Shown here piece by piece: positions 14,764 to 24,735 of a stretch of DNA of 46,177 bases. A program made the position numbers and the translations under genes. The notes under the pieces are model-generated. The model worked only from the letters and a program-made list of their open reading frames with translations, did no database searches and had not been told where the DNA came from. The stretch covers positions 1-46,177 of the IMG/VR virus record IMGVR_UViG_3300035156_000180; one strand, 5' to 3'. This stretch comes from a virus. Every line of letters begins with the position of its first letter. Position 1 is the first letter of the stretch.

Positions 14764-14895
14764 CTATTTAATCTCCCATCCACAATTTAAGCAGTAATCA
14801 CCTTTATGCTGGTGTACGTCCGGGTGCATGCCATGATCCTGGTTCATGAAATGCCCGCCCTTTAAGCGGCACAGTATGCGTTGCCAAATATTCAT
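14764..14895 (-). CDS. Hypothetical 43-aa Cys/His-containing peptide (below the ORF-track cutoff)
   Basis: Hand translation gives MNIWQRILCRLKGGHFMNQDHGMHPDVHQHKGDYCLNCGWEIK. The ATG forms an ATGA overlap with the stop of the GT2 gene. Confidence 0.4.
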   Translation of the reverse strand: MNIWQRILCRLKGGHFMNQDHGMHPDVHQHKGDYCLNCGWEIK

Positions 14896-16280
14896 CGCTC
14901 AATCTCCTGGCCAACGGCCTTTGGTGTGGGGTTCCACTTAATACCTTTGGTGCCAGTACACCACTTAAATATTGCCACCGCCGGCCCGGTCGTATCGTAT
15001 AGCCCGGCAAACGGCGTGCGCACCAGCACTGTCAAATGCTCCCACAGCTTTGCCCAGCGGCTCATGCGGGTATAGCTTAGGTTTTGGGCCAGGCCAATTT
15101 GGGTTGCGCCCAGCCACATTACTAAGCCAGGCACTGCCAGCCAGGTAAAGTGTATTGGGGTCGGGTCGCCCAGTGCCCACATAAGTAAGCCGGCCGCGCC
15201 AATAAACAGCCAGGTAAGCAACGATATGAAGCTAACCGGCATGCCTACCCCGTACGTAAATACCCGCAGGCGTATTACTACTTTAATCTTAAAGCGGTCG
15301 TACCAGCTTAGCTGCTCCCAGCCTGGCAGGTCGCTAACATGGGCCACACCCTGCAGCGCACCCATAACCCAGCGCTCGCGTTGCTTATAGGCGGCACGCA
15401 GCGTAAACGGCGGCTGCTCTATCATTTCGGCACCGTGCCAGCCAAAAGCCTTTTTGCCGTAGGCTATGTATGCCATAAGCCCAAATACTAAATCCTCGGC
15501 AATCAGCGGGTTGTCGCGGTACTGCCCAATATCCCAGCCAATTTCGTTTTCCAACCGTTCCTGGATAACCAGATTGCTGCCGTGCAAATGCAGCGGTACC
15601 GGGTGTGTCATAACCACATAGCACTCGTGGCAGCCAAACGGCCGGTTGCTTTCCATGGTGCGGCACATCGGGTGGGCCTCCTGCCAGTCCAGGGCATAGC
15701 TAATTGTGCCCTCGCTTATGCCAACGGGGTTGGTAAGCAAATTGCGCACCAGGCGGGCCAGGTTGTCCGGCGTAAATACACTTTCCTCATCGTAATGCAC
15801 GATATACGCATCCCGCGGGTTGGCCCGGTGCAGCTCCACCATGTAGTGCAGTGCCCTGGCCTTAAGCTGCGTGCGCTTTGGCGTTTGGTAGTCAGCCGGC
15901 AGGCAGTAGGCCGTTACCGGTATGTCGGCCCGGTTAAACTCCCGGTTAATAATCTCCACCTCGCTGGCCTGCTCGGTAATTACCTCAACAATCAGCAAGT
16001 TTTCAAGTGCCGGGTATTTGCGTACGGCCTGCAGCGCATAGCGTATGCCGCGCAGCACCACCTTTAAGCTGCCGCCCTTGGTAGTAATTTGGATAGTAAA
16101 ACGGTACGGGTGCTTGCCCTCGGCAAACGTGCCTGCAGCCAGGGCTTTTATTTCGGCATTACTTACCGGGCTTTTATCAATATGCTTGTGCGCCCTGGCG
16201 TAAATAACAACCAGCCAGTAATAGAGGTAGCTAAGGTTTAACAGCACTATTATTGGTAGCAAAATTAAATAAGGGTTCAT
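14892..16280 (-). CDS. Membrane-embedded family-2 glycosyltransferase of the processive-synthase type
   Basis: 462 aa. An N-terminal TM helix is followed by a GT-A domain with HYDEES (DxD-like), IAEDLVFG (ED) and YKQRERW (QxxRW). Several C-terminal TM helices follow. Confidence 0.8.
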   Translation of the reverse strand: MNPYLILLPIIVLLNLSYLYYWLVVIYARAHKHIDKSPVSNAEIKALAAGTFAEGKHPYRFTIQITTKGGSLKVVLRGIRYALQAVRKYPALENLLIVEVITEQASEVEIINREFNRADIPVTAYCLPADYQTPKRTQLKARALHYMVELHRANPRDAYIVHYDEESVFTPDNLARLVRNLLTNPVGISEGTISYALDWQEAHPMCRTMESNRPFGCHECYVVMTHPVPLHLHGSNLVIQERLENEIGWDIGQYRDNPLIAEDLVFGLMAYIAYGKKAFGWHGAEMIEQPPFTLRAAYKQRERWVMGALQGVAHVSDLPGWEQLSWYDRFKIKVVIRLRVFTYGVGMPVSFISLLTWLFIGAAGLLMWALGDPTPIHFTWLAVPGLVMWLGATQIGLAQNLSYTRMSRWAKLWEHLTVLVRTPFAGLYDTTGPAVAIFKWCTGTKGIKWNPTPKAVGQEIER

Positions 16281-21321: not shown

Positions 21322-21539
21322 TACTTTGTTACTGCCGGCTTAAAATGCTGTACCATGCGTGCTATATATGGGTCTTTTTTGGCGGCGGCAATTGCAGCAG
21401 TTAAAGCAGTGTCGGTAAACTCGTAACCGTAATCGGTAAGTACAGCCGCAATAGTTTCTTTGTCGTCGCGGGCTATCTGTACTTCCAGGTCGCCGTTTAT
21501 CACCGCTGCCGTAAGTTCTGCTGGTGTTGCCTGTGCCAT
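21321..21539 (-). CDS. Hypothetical protein. First gene of the middle operon.
   Basis: 72-aa ORF with SD AAAGGA 8 nt upstream and promoter 21572-21600 just upstream. Confidence 0.55.
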   Translation of the reverse strand: MAQATPAELTAAVINGDLEVQIARDDKETIAAVLTDYGYEFTDTALTAAIAAAKKDPYIARMVQHFKPAVTK

Positions 21540-21563
21540 GTTGTTGGTCCTTTATTTAACTTA

Positions 21564-21624
21564 GTACCCTTATAGTACCCCCTCTGCGTGGTACATGCAA
21601 GTACAAAATAGTACAATATAGTAC
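21564..21624. repeat. Array of six GTAC-core motifs (AGTAC[AC]) with 10-11-bp phasing, overlapping the promoter
   Basis: GTAC occurs at 21564, 21575, 21591, 21601, 21611 and 21621, giving spacings of 11, 16, 10, 10 and 10 bp. Confidence 0.8.
21572..21600 (-). promoter_or_regulatory. Promoter TTGCAT-N17-TACTAT for the 21539-and-downstream operon
   Basis: The minus strand reads TGTACTTGCAT-gtaccacgcagaggggg-TACTAT, counted by hand. It lies immediately downstream of two terminators. Confidence 0.6.
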
Positions 21625-21636
21625 ACCTGTGGATAA

Positions 21637-21676
21637 GAAAAAACCCCTTAAGCAATCTCGCATTGAGCTTAAGGGG
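21637..21676 (-). terminator. Intrinsic terminator closing the MTase/speD cassette
   Basis: 9-bp stem ccccttaag / cttaagggg with a 15-nt loop, followed on the minus strand by TTTTTT. Confidence 0.65.
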
Positions 21677-21772
21677 CACTGCATAAGGCTCTCAACCATA
21701 TGCTGCGTGGCTAGTTTGGGCCACCCACTTATCATTTTAGTAAAACCACCTCTAAATACAAGCATTAAAATG

Positions 21773-21808
21773 CCCGCCTGCGGAAAGGACCAACTAACTG
21801 CAGGCGGG
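21773..21808 (-). terminator. Hairpin / possible terminator directly after the 54-aa membrane ORF
   Basis: 9-bp stem cccgcctgc / gcaggcggg, followed on the minus strand by the U-rich ATTTTAATGCTT. Confidence 0.4.
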
Positions 21809-21815
21809 TATAGGC

Positions 21816-21980
21816 TCACTTTATCTTAGGGCGGATAAACAGTAAAGCAAAAAGCATAAGCCCGCTAAACCAGGCTGTGTTGCCCATTACCGCGCCGTCC
21901 GTAATTATGGTAGTAAAACACGCTATGGCAAACACCAGGCCCATGGCCACGGTAATGCCGTCAAATATTAGCTTTTTCAT
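21816..21980 (-). CDS. 54-aa two-TM-helix membrane peptide (below the ORF-track cutoff)
   Basis: Hand translation gives MKKLIFDGITVAMGLVFAIACFTTIITDGAVMGNTAWFSGLMLFALLFIRPKIK. The ATG overlaps the speD 3' end by 20 nt. Confidence 0.45.
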   Translation of the reverse strand: MKKLIFDGITVAMGLVFAIACFTTIITDGAVMGNTAWFSGLMLFALLFIRPKIK

Positions 21981-22332
21981 ATTGGCCCCTCTCTATCATG
22001 CGCAGACTGCTTTGCTTAGGCTGCAGCTGGCTTATTAAATACCGCCCGGCCTTTTCGGGGTCGCACACATCACCGCAGGTAAATATGTCTGCCATAAACA
22101 CCCCCAGCTCCGGGTAGGTGTGTATGCTAATGTGGCTCTCACTTAATACAGCCACGACCGTTACGCCCTGCGGCTCAAACTTTTCGGTACGTATGTGCAG
22201 CACGGTGGCCCCGGCCACGTTGGCAGCCAGGGCAATAAGCCGCTCTAGGTTCTCCGGCTCGTTCAATATATCAAAACTGCAGCCGCTGGCATCCAGTAGG
22301 CAGTGCTTACCCGTTGCTAGGTGTTTTGTCAT
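21961..22332 (-). CDS. speD: Pyruvoyl-dependent S-adenosylmethionine decarboxylase proenzyme (SpeD/SpeH class)
   Basis: VAVLSESHISIHTYPE contains the self-cleavage Ser. ADIFTCGD is also present. Length and overall alignment by eye match the small bacterial SpeH type. The first ATG is at 22332. The ORF-track start at 22359 is a TTG. Confidence 0.85.
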   Translation of the reverse strand: MTKHLATGKHCLLDASGCSFDILNEPENLERLIALAANVAGATVLHIRTEKFEPQGVTVVAVLSESHISIHTYPELGVFMADIFTCGDVCDPEKAGRYLISQLQPKQSSLRMIERGQYEKANI

Positions 22333-23773
22333 CTTCGGCAAACTCCGCTGGCATTTCAACCTCTAGGGCTGGGAAATGGTTTTTAATGTCTTTGATATTG
22401 CCCTTATAGAACACCAGCAAGTTTTGGTGTACGCGCACTACCTTGCGGCTGCCCATATTGCGGGCGGCCCGGATGGCTGCAGTGCCAATGGCATTTACTA
22501 TAATGATGTCGTTATAGAACTGCAGGCCCAGGTCGGTAAACAGCTTTACGTTGTCGCCAACAAAGTTGCGGTACACGCCGCCCTTGTCTCGTATCTCGGT
22601 AATGTTGATTACTACAAAGCGGTTGTCATTGAGCAGGCTCACCGCACCAGTAAATGCCTGGCGGTAGCTTTCCATAAACTCGGCGTAGGTGCCCAGGGTG
22701 CTCATATCCTCGGGCCGGTCGCTGTACACTTCCAGGTCGTAAAACGGCGGGCTGCTAAATACCAGGTCGGCCGTGGTGCCGGCAAAAATCTGGCCGCAGT
22801 GCCGGGCATCGCCAACCTGCAAATTAACCAGGGCTTTTTGCTCGTCAGTAAGCAAGCCAATTTTGGTGTAGGTTTCGGTAACCTGCTCCGGCCGTATTTC
22901 TGTGCCATGGTAGCGGTTGCCTGTAGCTGCTGCAACAAACGCGCTAACCGGCTCACCGCCAAATGGATTAAAGACTGTGCCGGGGCCGGGCATAAACCAT
23001 TTATATGAAACCTCACACAGCACCGGGTCTAGTTCGCTCACGCCGCTTGCCGCAAAAGCTTTGCCGCCATATTTGTCGCCCGCCAGGCTAGTTAGGCCGA
23101 GCGTGCCCTCGCGGGTTGCGCTTACGTCTCCGATGCGGTCGCCCCACGCACGGGCGCGGCTTTGCCAATAGCCCTGGCGTGTGTCCAGTATGCTAAATGG
23201 CGGCACCAAAAAAGCATCGGTTAGGCTGCCATGTTCCTCGGCCTGCTCGTCCTCGCCAACGCCCACGCTTGCCAACAGCTTTTTAATTTCGGCATCGTCC
23301 TGGCCGCTCAACCGCAGCAGCTCCTCACCATTTTCCAGCTGGCTTAATTCGTAGTCCATTTGCGCCAGCAGTTCCAAATCAAACTCGCCCTGGATGCGGT
23401 TGGCTGCAATATTGGCCGCGGCCTCCCAGCCGGCATCCCAGTCGACTTCGCGGTACGGGAATTGGGCCTGCCCGATAATAATATGGCCTATGCCCACAGT
23501 GCCTAAAGCATCGCGCTCAAGTGGGTATGGCTGCAGCATTTCAATGCGCACGCCCGGCTGGTTTTTCATTGCATTGATGCGTTGGTGGCCGCCCACCAGC
23601 TGCCCGGTGCGCACGTTAAATACTATGCAGCTTAGGTCGCCAAACTTTTGTATGCTCTGCTCCAGTGCCTTAAAATCATGCTCGCTAATGCGCCGCGGGT
23701 TCTTTACGTTTGGCAGTAAGTCGCGTATGTCGCGGCCGGCTGCCGGCTGGGTTGGTTGGTTGGCTGGGTCCAT
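22307..23773 (-). CDS. ParB-N (ParB/Srx-like) domain fused to a class-I SAM-dependent (DNA) methyltransferase-fold domain
   Basis: The N-terminus has NPRRISEHDF...VGGHQRINA (ParB-like). The C-terminus has VFNPFGGEP (motif I) about 70 aa before DLVFSSPPFYD (motif IV, SPPF). GAGGA lies 5 nt before the ATG at 23773. An alternative ATG is at 23785. Confidence 0.8.
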   Translation of the reverse strand: MDPANQPTQPAAGRDIRDLLPNVKNPRRISEHDFKALEQSIQKFGDLSCIVFNVRTGQLVGGHQRINAMKNQPGVRIEMLQPYPLERDALGTVGIGHIIIGQAQFPYREVDWDAGWEAAANIAANRIQGEFDLELLAQMDYELSQLENGEELLRLSGQDDAEIKKLLASVGVGEDEQAEEHGSLTDAFLVPPFSILDTRQGYWQSRARAWGDRIGDVSATREGTLGLTSLAGDKYGGKAFAASGVSELDPVLCEVSYKWFMPGPGTVFNPFGGEPVSAFVAAATGNRYHGTEIRPEQVTETYTKIGLLTDEQKALVNLQVGDARHCGQIFAGTTADLVFSSPPFYDLEVYSDRPEDMSTLGTYAEFMESYRQAFTGAVSLLNDNRFVVINITEIRDKGGVYRNFVGDNVKLFTDLGLQFYNDIIIVNAIGTAAIRAARNMGSRKVVRVHQNLLVFYKGNIKDIKNHFPALEVEMPAEFAEDDKTPSNG

Positions 23774-23831
23774 GTAAGTCCTCATTTAGTTAGTGGGTAC
23801 AATTATTACTATATCAAACTACTTATGTTTG

Positions 23832-23921
23832 CTCCCCTGCCCTGCGCTTGACCTCCCCCCTGTTTTATGTTTTAAGGTGTTAATCGAGAAATAAATTAAA
23901 AAACATAGCAGGGCAGGGGAG
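23832..23921. repeat. 14-bp perfect inverted repeat (23832-23845 and 23908-23921) separated by 62 bp
   Basis: ctcccctgccctgc and gcagggcaggggag were read directly. Confidence 0.85.
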
Positions 23922-24003
23922 TTACAATAAGTCAAGTAAATGCTATGAAATAAGGCTGCTGCAACCACTACAACAACACCTTAAGCCAATAGGGGTAGGG
24001 CAT

Positions 24004-24044
24004 AAAAAAACCACCGCCTGCGAGGTACGGTGGTTTCTTTTTTA
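24004..24044. terminator. Bidirectional intrinsic terminator
   Basis: Reads AAAAAAA-accaccg-cctgcgaggta-cggtggt-TTCTTTTTT. The stem is flanked by an A-run and a T-run. Confidence 0.65.
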
Positions 24045-24086
24045 GAGGTTTTGGTTTGGGTTTTATGAGGGTTTTGGTTTTGGGCG
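24045..24086 (+). repeat. G/T-rich tandem repeat (GGTTTTGGTTTGGG / GGGTTTTGGTTTTGGG)
   Basis: gaggttttggtttgggttttatgagggttttggttttgggcg was read directly. Confidence 0.75.
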
Positions 24087-24127
24087 ACGAGTTTATGGCT
24101 GCTCATCACTAAGCACATGGTAAGTCA

Positions 24128-24156
24128 TTGCTAACACCTTAGCAAGCACTTTTTTT
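24128..24156 (+). terminator. Possible plus-strand terminator hairpin
   Basis: TTGCTAA-CACC-TTAGCAA, then GCAC, then TTTTTTT. Confidence 0.35.
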
Positions 24157-24252
24157 GGGGCCTGTGGATGTTCAATTTTAGTGTACAGAGCGTTGTTAGA
24201 GCTGCCACAGAACCGCTAGTGTATACATTTTTTATACTCCTATTTTGAGCAA

Positions 24253-24735
24253 CTACTTTTGCAGGAAATCTATGACCCTGCGTTGAACAATTTGCGGTTT
24301 ATACGTCAAATCCACGGCCGGAATGTGCAGCAGCTCAAAGCCATATTGCCGCACATATTCATCCCGCTGCTGCTCGCGCAGTACGTCCTGGTGCCAGGCC
24401 CGGCCGTCAATCTCAATGCCCTTTTTGTAGTACGTGGTGCATACTGCAAAGTCAATATACATGGCCCCGGCCCGCACCTCCCGCTGCACCAGCTCGTTAT
24501 TTAGAATGGTACCCAGGCTGGTTATGCGGGCAAAACAAAAGCCGGTGCGCGGGTCTTTTGGCCAGGCATATTTTTTGTAGGTGCCGCCCATTATTGACAC
24601 AAAACGCAGCTCGGCCGGGCTTGGAAAATACAGCCGGCGGCGGCGGCGCAGCGCTGCCCTCTTTTTATAAAACTGGTACTTTAAGCCGCGCCATTTCCAG
24701 CGGGCCTTTATATACATATTGCGGTAACTGGTCAT
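24253..24735 (-). CDS. DUF559 / Vsr-like PD-(D/E)xK endonuclease-domain protein
   Basis: 160 aa. IDFAVCTTYYKKGIEIDGRAWHQDVLREQQRDEYVRQYGFELLHI matches the DUF559 core pattern (D...E.DG..H...D..R...L...G). It sits alone in the divergent control region. Confidence 0.65.
   Translation of the reverse strand: MTSYRNMYIKARWKWRGLKYQFYKKRAALRRRRRLYFPSPAELRFVSIMGGTYKKYAWPKDPRTGFCFARITSLGTILNNELVQREVRAGAMYIDFAVCTTYYKKGIEIDGRAWHQDVLREQQRDEYVRQYGFELLHIPAVDLTYKPQIVQRRVIDFLQK

Follow-up and report, generated by a model that had tools for sequence, protein, structure and literature searches.

A phage SpeD and a ParB-fused methyltransferase homologue with a covarying cofactor pocket: a candidate two-enzyme module for DNA alkylation with decarboxylated SAM

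Results

A bracketed cassette of three overlapping genes

The window analysed here is the whole 46,177-nt stretch of viral DNA (IMG/VR record IMGVR_UViG_3300035156_000180). Three overlapping genes lie together on its minus strand, encoding a ParB-fused amino-methyltransferase homologue (MTase), a class-1b SpeD and a 54-aa peptide with two transmembrane (TM) segments. The fusion gene (22307..23785, 492 aa) combines a ParB-like N-terminal region with a permuted amino-methyltransferase fold; in public gene calls it starts at the second ATG, 23773, giving 488 aa. The speD gene (21961..22332, 123 aa), predicted to specify a class-1b pyruvoyl S-adenosylmethionine decarboxylase (AdoMetDC) proenzyme, starts with the ATG at 22332 and stops at 21961-21963. 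It shares 26 nt with the fusion gene and 20 nt with the two-TM peptide ORF (21816..21980).

Two hairpin terminators follow on the same strand, the first at 21770..21811 (-21.3 kcal/mol, z = -3.3) and the second, with a U6 tail, at 21637..21676 (folded part 21644-21676, -18.4 kcal/mol, z = -2.6). Upstream of the cassette lies a further intrinsic-terminator-like hairpin (24004..24040, minus strand; 13-nt arms, U7 tail), which is also kept in the related locus L083 and is predicted to stop transcription of the MTES_1575 gene ahead of the cassette. A preliminary description, made from the letters of the window, had proposed three overlapping minus-strand cistrons, two terminators 3′ of them and an insulated cassette; the ORF coordinates support the first and folding the second, and since there are hairpins on both sides, the unit is indeed bracketed. 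The upstream hairpin was absent from that description.

Between this hairpin and the fusion gene, a leader (23786..24003, minus strand) forms the putative promoter region. Aligned to L083 it shows long invariant blocks and a conserved stretch, TTGACT...CTGCTATGTT, and it contains a 25-nt inverted repeat (23821-23845 / 23908-23932). Counts of consensus promoters and terminators from a simple scan were at chance level. No Rfam family was matched in 21400-24400, hence no SAM riboswitch, and a search of deposited phages with the cassette at DNA level gave no matches.

The small ORF appears to be a real conserved gene, with homologues of 54 aa in L083 and 64 aa in L086, the latter sitting directly after an MTase without SpeD, and its overlap suggests that it is translationally coupled to speD. 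It may be a passenger on the same transcript in the phage lineage of the window: its earlier inclusion in the cassette holds for the transcription unit, while the conserved, widespread module comprises only the other two genes.

SpeD and the fusion protein

The window SpeD matches PF02675 over the whole profile (positions 1-107 of 107) with 122.4 bits against a cut-off of 25, scores 128.6 against the TIGR03330 equivalog (cut-off 75.65), and aligns along its entire length with the AdoMetDC structures 2iii and 1vr7. Kept in this alignment are the self-cleavage site E65-S66 (S66 codon at 22135-22137, minus strand), H71 (in LSESHISIHT) and C86 (in FTCG). The protein probably decarboxylates SAM to decarboxylated SAM (dcSAM); some phage homologues decarboxylate arginine or ornithine, not SAM. 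Among the phage class-1b AdoMetDCs described as SpeD/SpeH (PMC9992855), it is a full-length member above curated thresholds.

In the fusion protein, a ParB/Srx-like N-terminal domain with NPRR and GGHQR motifs occupies aa ~18-184 (23234..23734, minus strand). It matches phrog_620 over aa 18-184 (1e-22), and a profile built from the homologue alignment (A1), in which G66 and R69 of GGHQR are invariant, matches the ParB/Spo0J structures 4umk (2e-07) and 6sdk. PF02195 gave no match to the window protein at E<=0.1, and many homologues do match it.

The transferase core, delimited by the A1 alignment, covers aa 188-470 (22376..23224, minus strand) and spans the VPPFSILDTRQGYW motif, motif X, motif I, motif II (E296), motif IV and HQNLLVFYKG. 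Its AF2 pLDDT is mostly above 90 and its best fold matches (Foldseek, PDB) are aTrm11, TrmN, Trm14 and TrmM. Motif IV, read from the sequence as S344-S-P-P-F348 (22742..22756, minus strand), has P346 and P347 invariant across the 36 homologues of A1; motifs of this SPP(F/Y) type serve catalysis in enzymes whose targets for alkylation are exocyclic amino groups. Motif I (F275-G-G-E-P) precedes motif IV by 70 aa. Motifs IV-VIII do not precede X-I-III here as they do in the beta class, and the beta-class enzyme 2zie was matched by profile in two pieces of swapped order, so the motif order is truly permuted. The fusion protein scores 25.3 bits against PF01555 (N6_N4_Mtase), below the cut-off of 26.7 and over profile positions 2-110 of 221, and matches phrog_498, ‘DNA methyltransferase’, at 6e-98.

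These results agree with the preliminary description as regards the retained catalytic residues of SpeD, the ParB/Srx-like N-domain and the non-beta-class motif order, but not with its hint of kinship to spermidine synthases. The core as a spermidine-synthase relative was rejected: PF01564 (Spermine_synth) had no match to the fusion protein at E<=0.1, and no aminopropyltransferase or spermidine synthase occurred within the top 50 Foldseek PDB fold matches.

Several features are shared with characterised enzymes. Trm11, Trm14/TrmN and TrmM, m2G/m6A RNA amino-methyltransferases, have the same motif order (X, I ... IV) and a (N/D/S)PP(Y/F/H) catalytic motif in common with the window enzyme, although they act on tRNA via THUMP or other domains, use SAM, and have a sequence identity to it of only 12-17%. 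The ParB-N6_N4 DNA methyltransferase fusions (PMC12704722) show the same domain architecture and the same enrichment in phages and prophages; unlike them, the window family shows a circular permutation with respect to the beta class.

The MTase-SpeD pair recurs across phages and prophages

Relatives were recovered by a profile locus search, a single-sequence locus search having given none. In 56/170 homologous loci SpeD was encoded on the strand of the MTase and directly abutted its stop codon; the figures for viral and prophage loci were 23/80 and 29/80, respectively. The association is tighter when approached from the other side, as the MTase lay directly upstream of a short ‘mini-SpeD’ in 80/80 retrieved mini-SpeD loci, and IMG/VR alone contains 330 relatives of this mini-AdoMetDC clade. 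Hosts of SpeD-MTase loci belong to several phyla, and two cultured phages, Croceibacter P2559S and Stutzerimonas ZRG1, carry the pair. Genes of the MTase family stand next to terminase genes in most loci, and about a third of family members combine a non-SAM-type pocket with a dedicated SpeD; in all, the family numbers more than 550 viral loci. The preliminary description would have counted failure of the adjacency to recur in relatives against a functional link: it recurs in hundreds of contigs from several bacterial phyla, and the pair is no local oddity. A literature search on speD with ParB/MTase, aminopropyl DNA and dcSAM in phages found no prior description.

The MTase family has two other partner genes, one for a PALP-fold enzyme and one for a protein of ~168 aa. 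The latter matched no Pfam, PHROG or NCBIfam family, and its own assignment to the PALP fold was rejected (hhalign probability only 16.5%).

Residues of the cofactor pocket covary with SpeD

Two sites in the transferase core distinguish enzymes with and without SpeD: Leu252 in motif X (VSELDP; codon 23030..23032, minus strand) and the motif I loop, E278-P-V-S281 (codons 22943..22954, minus strand). Position 252 is Leu where SpeD is present and Phe where it is absent; position 281 is Arg or Lys in SpeD-less enzymes and non-basic in SpeD-linked ones; and position 278 is acidic (Asp/Glu) in all SpeD-linked enzymes. The exceptions to this signature are L093, L096 and L010. In a set of 250 loci, SpeD accompanied 133/135 enzymes with Leu252 and a non-basic residue 281, compared with 0/110 of those with Phe252 and Arg/Lys281. 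The result held for clusters at 70% identity (38/40 compared with 0/79; Fisher p = 4e-29, in a test that ignores shared ancestry). Blind predictions from the signature only were correct in 6/6 cases, five with SpeD (P0006, P0022, P0046, P0009 and P0111) and one without (P0039). Exceptions L093 and L096 retain no SpeD remnant and look like recent SpeD deletions in prophages. The loop of the exception L010 is aberrant.

In the fold neighbour PfTrm14, contacts to the α-carboxylate of SAM come from S228 and T230, which lie in or beside motif I, together with a residue close to motif X (PMC3367198). By motif register these contacts fall at window positions 278, 280/281 and about 252. We infer that the SpeD-linked pocket has lost its SAM-carboxylate contacts and that the covariation of positions 252, 278 and 281 with SpeD reflects a transferase pocket matched to an altered cofactor, this structural role being read from motif register. 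SpeD-linked and SpeD-less enzymes were alike in motif IV and in the other active-site residues, and the sequence carries no signal of a changed transferred group.

Position 308 was also considered as a specificity site, being basic in most SpeD-linked enzymes, but was set aside because it is located at the distal end of helix B and discriminates imperfectly.

Separate switches and mosaic cassettes

The pocket appears to have switched in at least two lineages, with differing replacement residues: the window group has GGEPVSA, with Ser281, and a large GD[TS]VFG clade has Phe281. Positions 283, 271, 304 and others do not toggle in both lineages, and are therefore apparent clade markers. The SpeD partners of linked enzymes are themselves of three sequence types (mini, ZRG1/L044 type and window type). 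In the family tree, a neighbour-joining tree without support values, SpeD-less subclades with Phe and Arg/Lys (L084/85 and the GDTQKG group) are nested within linked clades, and these are probably reversions to Phe plus Arg/Lys.

The closest syntenic relatives of the window, L084 and L086, are without SpeD and have a SAM-type pocket. Comparison with L086 gave 73% identity in the ParB domain and only 43% in the core, whereas for the SpeD-bearing L087 the core was 67% identical and the ParB domain 23%, a contrast indicating that core and SpeD move together.

Discussion

The covariation and recurrence described above suggest that the pair places a dcSAM-derived group, perhaps aminopropyl, on phage DNA. 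We lean, with some reserve, towards an explanation that pairs the MTase core with speD in a two-enzyme module for DNA alkylation, the transferase working on dcSAM. SpeD would turn SAM into dcSAM; the ParB-fused transferase, translationally coupled to it, would have a pocket retuned at the methionine part of the cofactor, the SAM-associated basic residue and Phe being gone and an acidic residue standing in the glycine loop. It is from this retuned pocket that use of dcSAM in place of SAM is deduced. Brought to DNA by its ParB domain, the enzyme would use its SPP(F/Y) motif to alkylate adenine or cytosine of phage DNA at the exocyclic amino group, and transfer of 3-aminopropyl would yield a cationic base modification that may shield the DNA from restriction. 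Aminopropyl is favoured because a switch of donor for methyl only gives no reason for excluding SAM, yet this step is the weakest in the explanation. More tentatively, SpeD-linked members may be the first nucleic-acid aminopropyltransferases, which after replication would attach 3-aminopropyl to adenine N6 or cytosine N4, using phage-made dcSAM. The preliminary description had set a dcSAM-using transferase of aminopropyl type among three options; dcSAM use is the part that the covariation of pocket and SpeD best supports, while the choice of aminopropyl over methyl is still conjectural.

A precedent is CmoA-CmoX of Synechococcus phage S-B43, in which phage CmoA makes carboxy-SAM for the methyltransferase homologue CmoX and an Arg of CmoX matches the altered cofactor (PMC12783734). 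There too a SAM-altering gene lies beside one for a DNA-methyltransferase homologue whose pocket has a residue suited to the changed cofactor, as is proposed for the window pair, and ParB-domain proteins are often encoded nearby; as with CmoA/CmoX, the window family has a SAM-modifying enzyme beside a transferase, kept across many phages. The chemistry differs, carboxy-SAM being made by CmoA from prephenate whereas the cofactor enzyme of the window is a pyruvoyl decarboxylase, as do the transferases: CmoX, a homologue of C5-cytosine MTases, has gained an Arg, and the window enzyme, of exocyclic-amino (N6/N4) type, has lost Arg/Lys.

The same recurrence and covariation could also arise if SpeD drained SAM against type I/III restriction-modification (R-M) systems and BREX, with the methylase adapted to the accumulating dcSAM and the phage DNA bearing ordinary m6A or m4C. 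The unchanged motif IV and catalytic region would fit an unchanged geometry of methyl transfer, and there is precedent in the SAM-destroying phage enzymes, which are established counter-defence. Were the product the same from SAM or dcSAM, however, there would be little selection for uniform loss of the carboxylate contacts and little reason to fix an acidic residue expected to repel SAM; dcSAM is in general a poor methyl donor; and the occurrence of mini-SpeD only beside the MTase, in all 80 retrieved loci, fits the supply of a cofactor better than wholesale depletion. Counter-defence by SAM alteration has been raised for CmoA (PMC12783734), and depletion with a dcSAM-driven methylase, although we consider it unlikely, is the form in which an earlier proposal survives. 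As first put, that proposal had the phage enzyme out-compete host defences for SAM, and it fails on the covariation, the linked enzymes having lost, not strengthened, their carboxylate contacts.

It is improbable that the two genes have unrelated functions, with SpeD a polyamine gene or anti-restriction SAM sink, the MTase SAM-dependent and the pocket residues lineage markers. Cyanophage speD is widespread as a stand-alone auxiliary gene, and L084 and L086 do without SpeD despite their closeness to the window. P2559S SpeD rescues spermidine synthesis in E. coli lacking speD, and was read as a polyamine gene (PMC9992855); it frees enough dcSAM for E. coli SpeE, and a polyamine role is accordingly possible in addition. 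That study treats phage SpeD as polyamine biosynthesis and leaves the neighbouring methylase unmentioned, but the P2559S enzyme assayed there belongs to the MTase-SpeD module. Unrelated functions would leave unexplained the contrast between 0/79 and 38/40 clusters, the convergent replacements in separate lineages, the reversion in nested SpeD-less clades and the six correct blind predictions, as well as the location of the switch, in the two motifs binding the very part of SAM that SpeD removes. Plain polyamine boosting, an option raised at the outset, too leaves the covariation unexplained.

Still less probable is that the MTase-fold protein is a non-canonical polyamine aminopropyltransferase, a SpeE analogue acting perhaps on or near DNA via ParB and making, with SpeD, spermidine or an unusual polyamine: the pocket changes are of dcSAM type, and the acidic glycine-loop residue resembles that of spermidine synthases, with their GGGDG signature, but SPP(F/Y), the ParB DNA-binding domain and the SpeD-less homologues point to a nucleobase amino acceptor, and neither its sequence nor its fold shows affinity to SpeE. 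What SpeE and the SpeD-linked enzymes have in common is a class-I Rossmann-like fold, an acidic glycine-loop residue, the lack of a carboxylate-binding residue and a SpeD partner gene; no sequence or specific fold relationship is detectable between them, and the nucleobase-amino motif and the ParB fusion are peculiar to the window enzyme.

If a dcSAM-using DNA alkylation module is the correct explanation, the mini-AdoMetDC clade would be reassigned from making polyamines to supplying a cofactor with which DNA is modified, and dcSAM would become, after carboxy-SAM, another of the few alternative cofactors derived from SAM that are used on DNA. The two-residue rule would predict cofactor type in an uncharacterised, phage-enriched ParB-methylase family, and the cultured phages P2559S and ZRG1 are material in which a possible new base could be sought. 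A base carrying a cationic aminopropyl group would have consequences for restriction evasion and DNA packaging, would affect the sequencing and cloning of phage DNA and might provide an enzymatic DNA-labelling tool; it would represent a new cationic hypermodification, shared by hundreds of phages and prophages from Bacteroidota, Proteobacteria, Firmicutes and other groups.

Results

Adjacency of the fusion protein gene (MTase) and SpeD, central to the proposal that the transferase uses decarboxylated SAM (dcSAM) for an aminopropyl-type modification of DNA or another target, recurred in relatives. The best match among deposited phages, Croceibacter phage P2559S gp66 (37% identity), is followed with a 38-nt overlap by gp67, an AdoMetDC. 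This gp67 enzyme made up for the loss of speD in E. coli by restoring spermidine synthesis (PMC9992855), an account from which the neighbouring methylase is absent. The pair also occurs in Stutzerimonas phage ZRG1. An MTase profile search returned 80 viral and 80 prophage loci (individual loci are given below by L or P numbers), and in 56/170 loci SpeD lay on the MTase strand, −280 to +7 nt from the MTase stop (one case +230), large negative offsets being an artefact of longest-ORF gene calling. A reverse search with the profile of a clade of short ‘mini-SpeD’ proteins (about 90–105 aa) found 330 relatives in IMG/VR, with an MTase directly upstream in 80/80 loci retrieved from among them. The pair is conserved and tightly coupled, and obligate for one SpeD clade. 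No MTase-type gene was found next to cyanophage speD genes.

Mini-SpeD proteins have ELSSC in place of FTCGD and lack the C-terminal strand region. They (L001:5352–5672, which is P2559S gp67, and its clade) scored 63.3 against TIGR03330, below the equivalog cut-off of 75.65, despite which the P2559S protein is active by experiment (PMC9992855). On a short metagenomic contig, L088:337–753 is a PTPS/QueD-like gene of the 7-deazaguanine pathway, some 1.4 kb upstream of an MTase that is SpeD-linked; a second route to DNA modification may be present in this phage.

The carboxylate-side pocket of the MTase switches with the presence of SpeD. Two alignment positions discriminated perfectly between enzymes with an adjoining SpeD gene (SpeD-linked) and those without (SpeD-less): motif X (S-x-[F/L]-D-P) has Phe in SpeD-less and Leu in SpeD-linked enzymes (L252 in the window), and the motif I loop (PF[AG]G-x-x-x-[R/K]-G) has Arg or Lys in the former and Phe, or Ser in the window group (S281), in the latter. 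Moreover, position 278 was Asp or Glu in all SpeD-linked enzymes. Among 250 loci, Phe with a basic residue occurred in 110, none with SpeD, and Leu with a non-basic residue in 133 with SpeD and two without (L093 and L096, a pair of sister prophages from which SpeD has been cleanly deleted). When loci were clustered at 70% identity, SpeD was present in 38/40 clusters of the second kind versus 0/79 of the first (Fisher p = 4e-29, uncorrected for phylogeny). In a blind test from the signature alone, SpeD was predicted in P0006, P0022, P0046, P0009 and P0111, and found in all five; its absence was predicted in P0039, where there was none (6/6 predictions right).

In PfTrm14, a top fold match of the window MTase, three contacts hold the SAM alpha-carboxylate: S228, inside motif I (M225-x-G-x-G); T230, which adjoins it; and the main chain of a residue near motif X (PMC3367198). 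Because, in motif register, window position 278 is the counterpart of S228, 280 (beside 281) that of T230, and approximately 252 that of the motif X contact, the covarying residues would surround exactly the group that SpeD removes.

As judged from sequence, the SpeD-linked state has more than one origin. In a neighbour-joining tree of the MTase core, the window group (the window MTase, L083, L087 and L088) lay beside SpeD-less clades, with a SpeD-less pair, L084/85, nested inside it; a large GD[TS]VFG clade lay elsewhere, with a nested SpeD-less GDTQKG subclade. These nested SpeD-less groups have Phe plus Arg/Lys. The two SpeD-linked lineages differ from one another at position 281 (Ser or Phe) and at 278 (Glu or Asp), and between them they have three SpeD sequence types (mini, ZRG1/L044 type and window type). 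Compared with the syntenic, SpeD-less L086, the window showed 73% identity in the ParB domain but only 43% in the core, whereas compared with SpeD-bearing L087 the core showed 67% and the ParB domain only 23%, contrasts indicating that core and SpeD were exchanged as a unit. The fusion protein is itself mosaic, with a recombination joint between ParB domain (23234–23734) and core (22376–23224).

Other partners accompany this family. In a SpeD-less GEQTKG/GSLARG clade, the sister of the window group, the MTase has a downstream partner dedicated to that clade: a protein of about 160–180 aa that matched nothing in Pfam, PHROG or NCBIfam (L059:5130–5636, L003:5328–5816 and 18 other loci: L004, L006, L011, L012, L016, L018, L020, L032, L036, L047, L051, L052, L056, L058, L094, L095, L107 and L134). 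In some GGSVRG-type members (L019, L049, L079:5364–6077, L082, L119, L121, L132 and L168) the gene after the MTase encodes a PALP-fold PLP enzyme of about 237 aa (phrog_7093 ‘threonine dehydratase’, PF00291); in L002:3905–6394 (Pseudanabaena phage Pam4 gp70) and P0029 this enzyme is inserted into the MTase. That both the PALP-fold enzyme and SpeD accompany the MTase suggests that the family often works with enzymes acting on an amino-acid moiety.

By profile and alignment, the window SpeD is a canonical class-1b AdoMetDC (PF02675, 122 bits; TIGR03330 equivalog, 128.6, cut-off 75.65), aligning over its whole length with two enzymes of solved structure, 2iii and 1vr7, and retaining the cleavage site E65-S66, H71 and C86. 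The fusion protein joins an N-terminal ParB/Srx domain (phrog_620 match; ParB structure matches) to a C-terminal class-I fold core, and its AF2 model (pLDDT 79 overall, >90 in the core) best matched the amino-methyltransferases aTrm11, TrmN/Trm14 and TrmM. It scored 25.3 against Pfam N6_N4_Mtase, just under the threshold of 26.7, and 6e-98 against phrog_498. The nearest solved enzyme by sequence, the beta-class DNA methylase TTHA0409 (2zie), was matched by profile in two pieces of swapped order; the family is therefore a circular permutation of the beta class, bearing out an earlier suspicion that the motif order is not that of the beta class. The 54-aa peptide, conserved in L083 and L086 and in the latter directly following a SpeD-less MTase, is a real gene, independent of SpeD.

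The window is a phage genome, complete at about 46 kb. Its fusion gene (492 aa, 22307–23785, minus strand; start at 23773 in public calls) overlaps speD (21961–22332, minus) by 26 nt, and speD overlaps the 54-aa ORF (21816–21980, minus) by 20 nt. Stable hairpins lie downstream at 21770–21811 and 21644–21676 (the second with a U6 tail), and a third, with a U7 tail, lies before the cassette at 24004–40, so that the unit is bracketed as the preliminary description, confirmed overall, had proposed. RecT and YqaJ genes lie on the divergent strand; further genes encode a Dda-like helicase, a Mu-type portal and a tape-measure protein, and the replication-side block includes a 462-aa family-2 glycosyltransferase (PF13632, 3e-18; 14892–16280, minus). 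In the window lineage the MTase is the first gene of the replication operon, lying opposite RecT/YqaJ. Most phages and prophages (most of L003–L249, e.g. L124:4825–6135, L251, L253) have the MTase, with or without a partner, directly upstream of the small- and large-terminase genes.

The leader upstream of the fusion gene aligned with strong conservation in the closest relative and had no Rfam match; consensus promoter scans gave counts at chance level. A 25-nt inverted repeat (23821–23845/23908–23932, 84% complementary, GCAGGGCAGGGGAG core), mostly kept in L083, flanks the putative cassette promoter and may be an operator or leader structure. Two tandem 23-nt direct repeats (TTTTxxxGAGGxTTTTGGTTTxGG, 24038–24083) adjoin the upstream terminator. 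Between the second terminator and the gene after it lie two TAGTACCC copies (21562–21580) and three GTACA-N5-GTACA units with 10-bp phasing (21591–21625); the whole (21562–21625) resembles an array of operator or promoter elements. TGTACT was not enriched across the window genome. Directly upstream of the cassette (24253–24735, minus), and in the same position in L083, L086 and L255, lies the gene for a 160-aa protein that has an endonuclease-like REase_MTES_1575 domain (34.9 bits, under the cut-off of 38.2); this protein could partner the modification enzyme as a nuclease.

Discussion

SpeD-linked enzymes would bind dcSAM, and we favour aminopropyl as the group transferred from it. Uniform loss of the basic residue, with fixation of an acidic one, points to selection for keeping out SAM, by far the more abundant cofactor, and such selection would be sensible only if SAM gave the wrong product. 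The spermidine synthase GGGDG loop holds an Asp, to which the same logic applies. However, SpeD-linked enzymes show no change in motif IV or the remainder of the active site, which counts against aminopropyl transfer, and dcSAM-driven methylation, combined with SAM depletion, is a serious rival. A SpeE-like polyamine role is much less likely; for the kinship with spermidine synthase once hinted at, the fusion protein gave no match by sequence or by fold. Hitch-hiking of unrelated genes is likewise much less likely. Of the original proposal, use of dcSAM by the transferase draws support from the covariation of pocket and SpeD and from recurrence of the pair, and may now pass from speculation to leading hypothesis as regards cofactor use only; the product chemistry goes beyond this.

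The pair belongs with ‘cofactor-maker plus MTase-homologue’ systems, its closest working analogue being phage CmoA/CmoX, in which carboxy-SAM, made by a phage enzyme, serves a C5-MTase homologue whose Arg is matched to it (PMC12783734). Phage AdoMetDC has already been described in the context of polyamine synthesis (PMC9992855), ParB-N6_N4 fusions are known to be enriched in phages (PMC12704722), and full-text literature searches found no report of speD-MTase linkage, dcSAM-dependent DNA modification or aminopropylated DNA bases. Within this family a simple sequence rule predicts the presence or absence of SpeD, and two cultured phages, P2559S and ZRG1, carry the pair.
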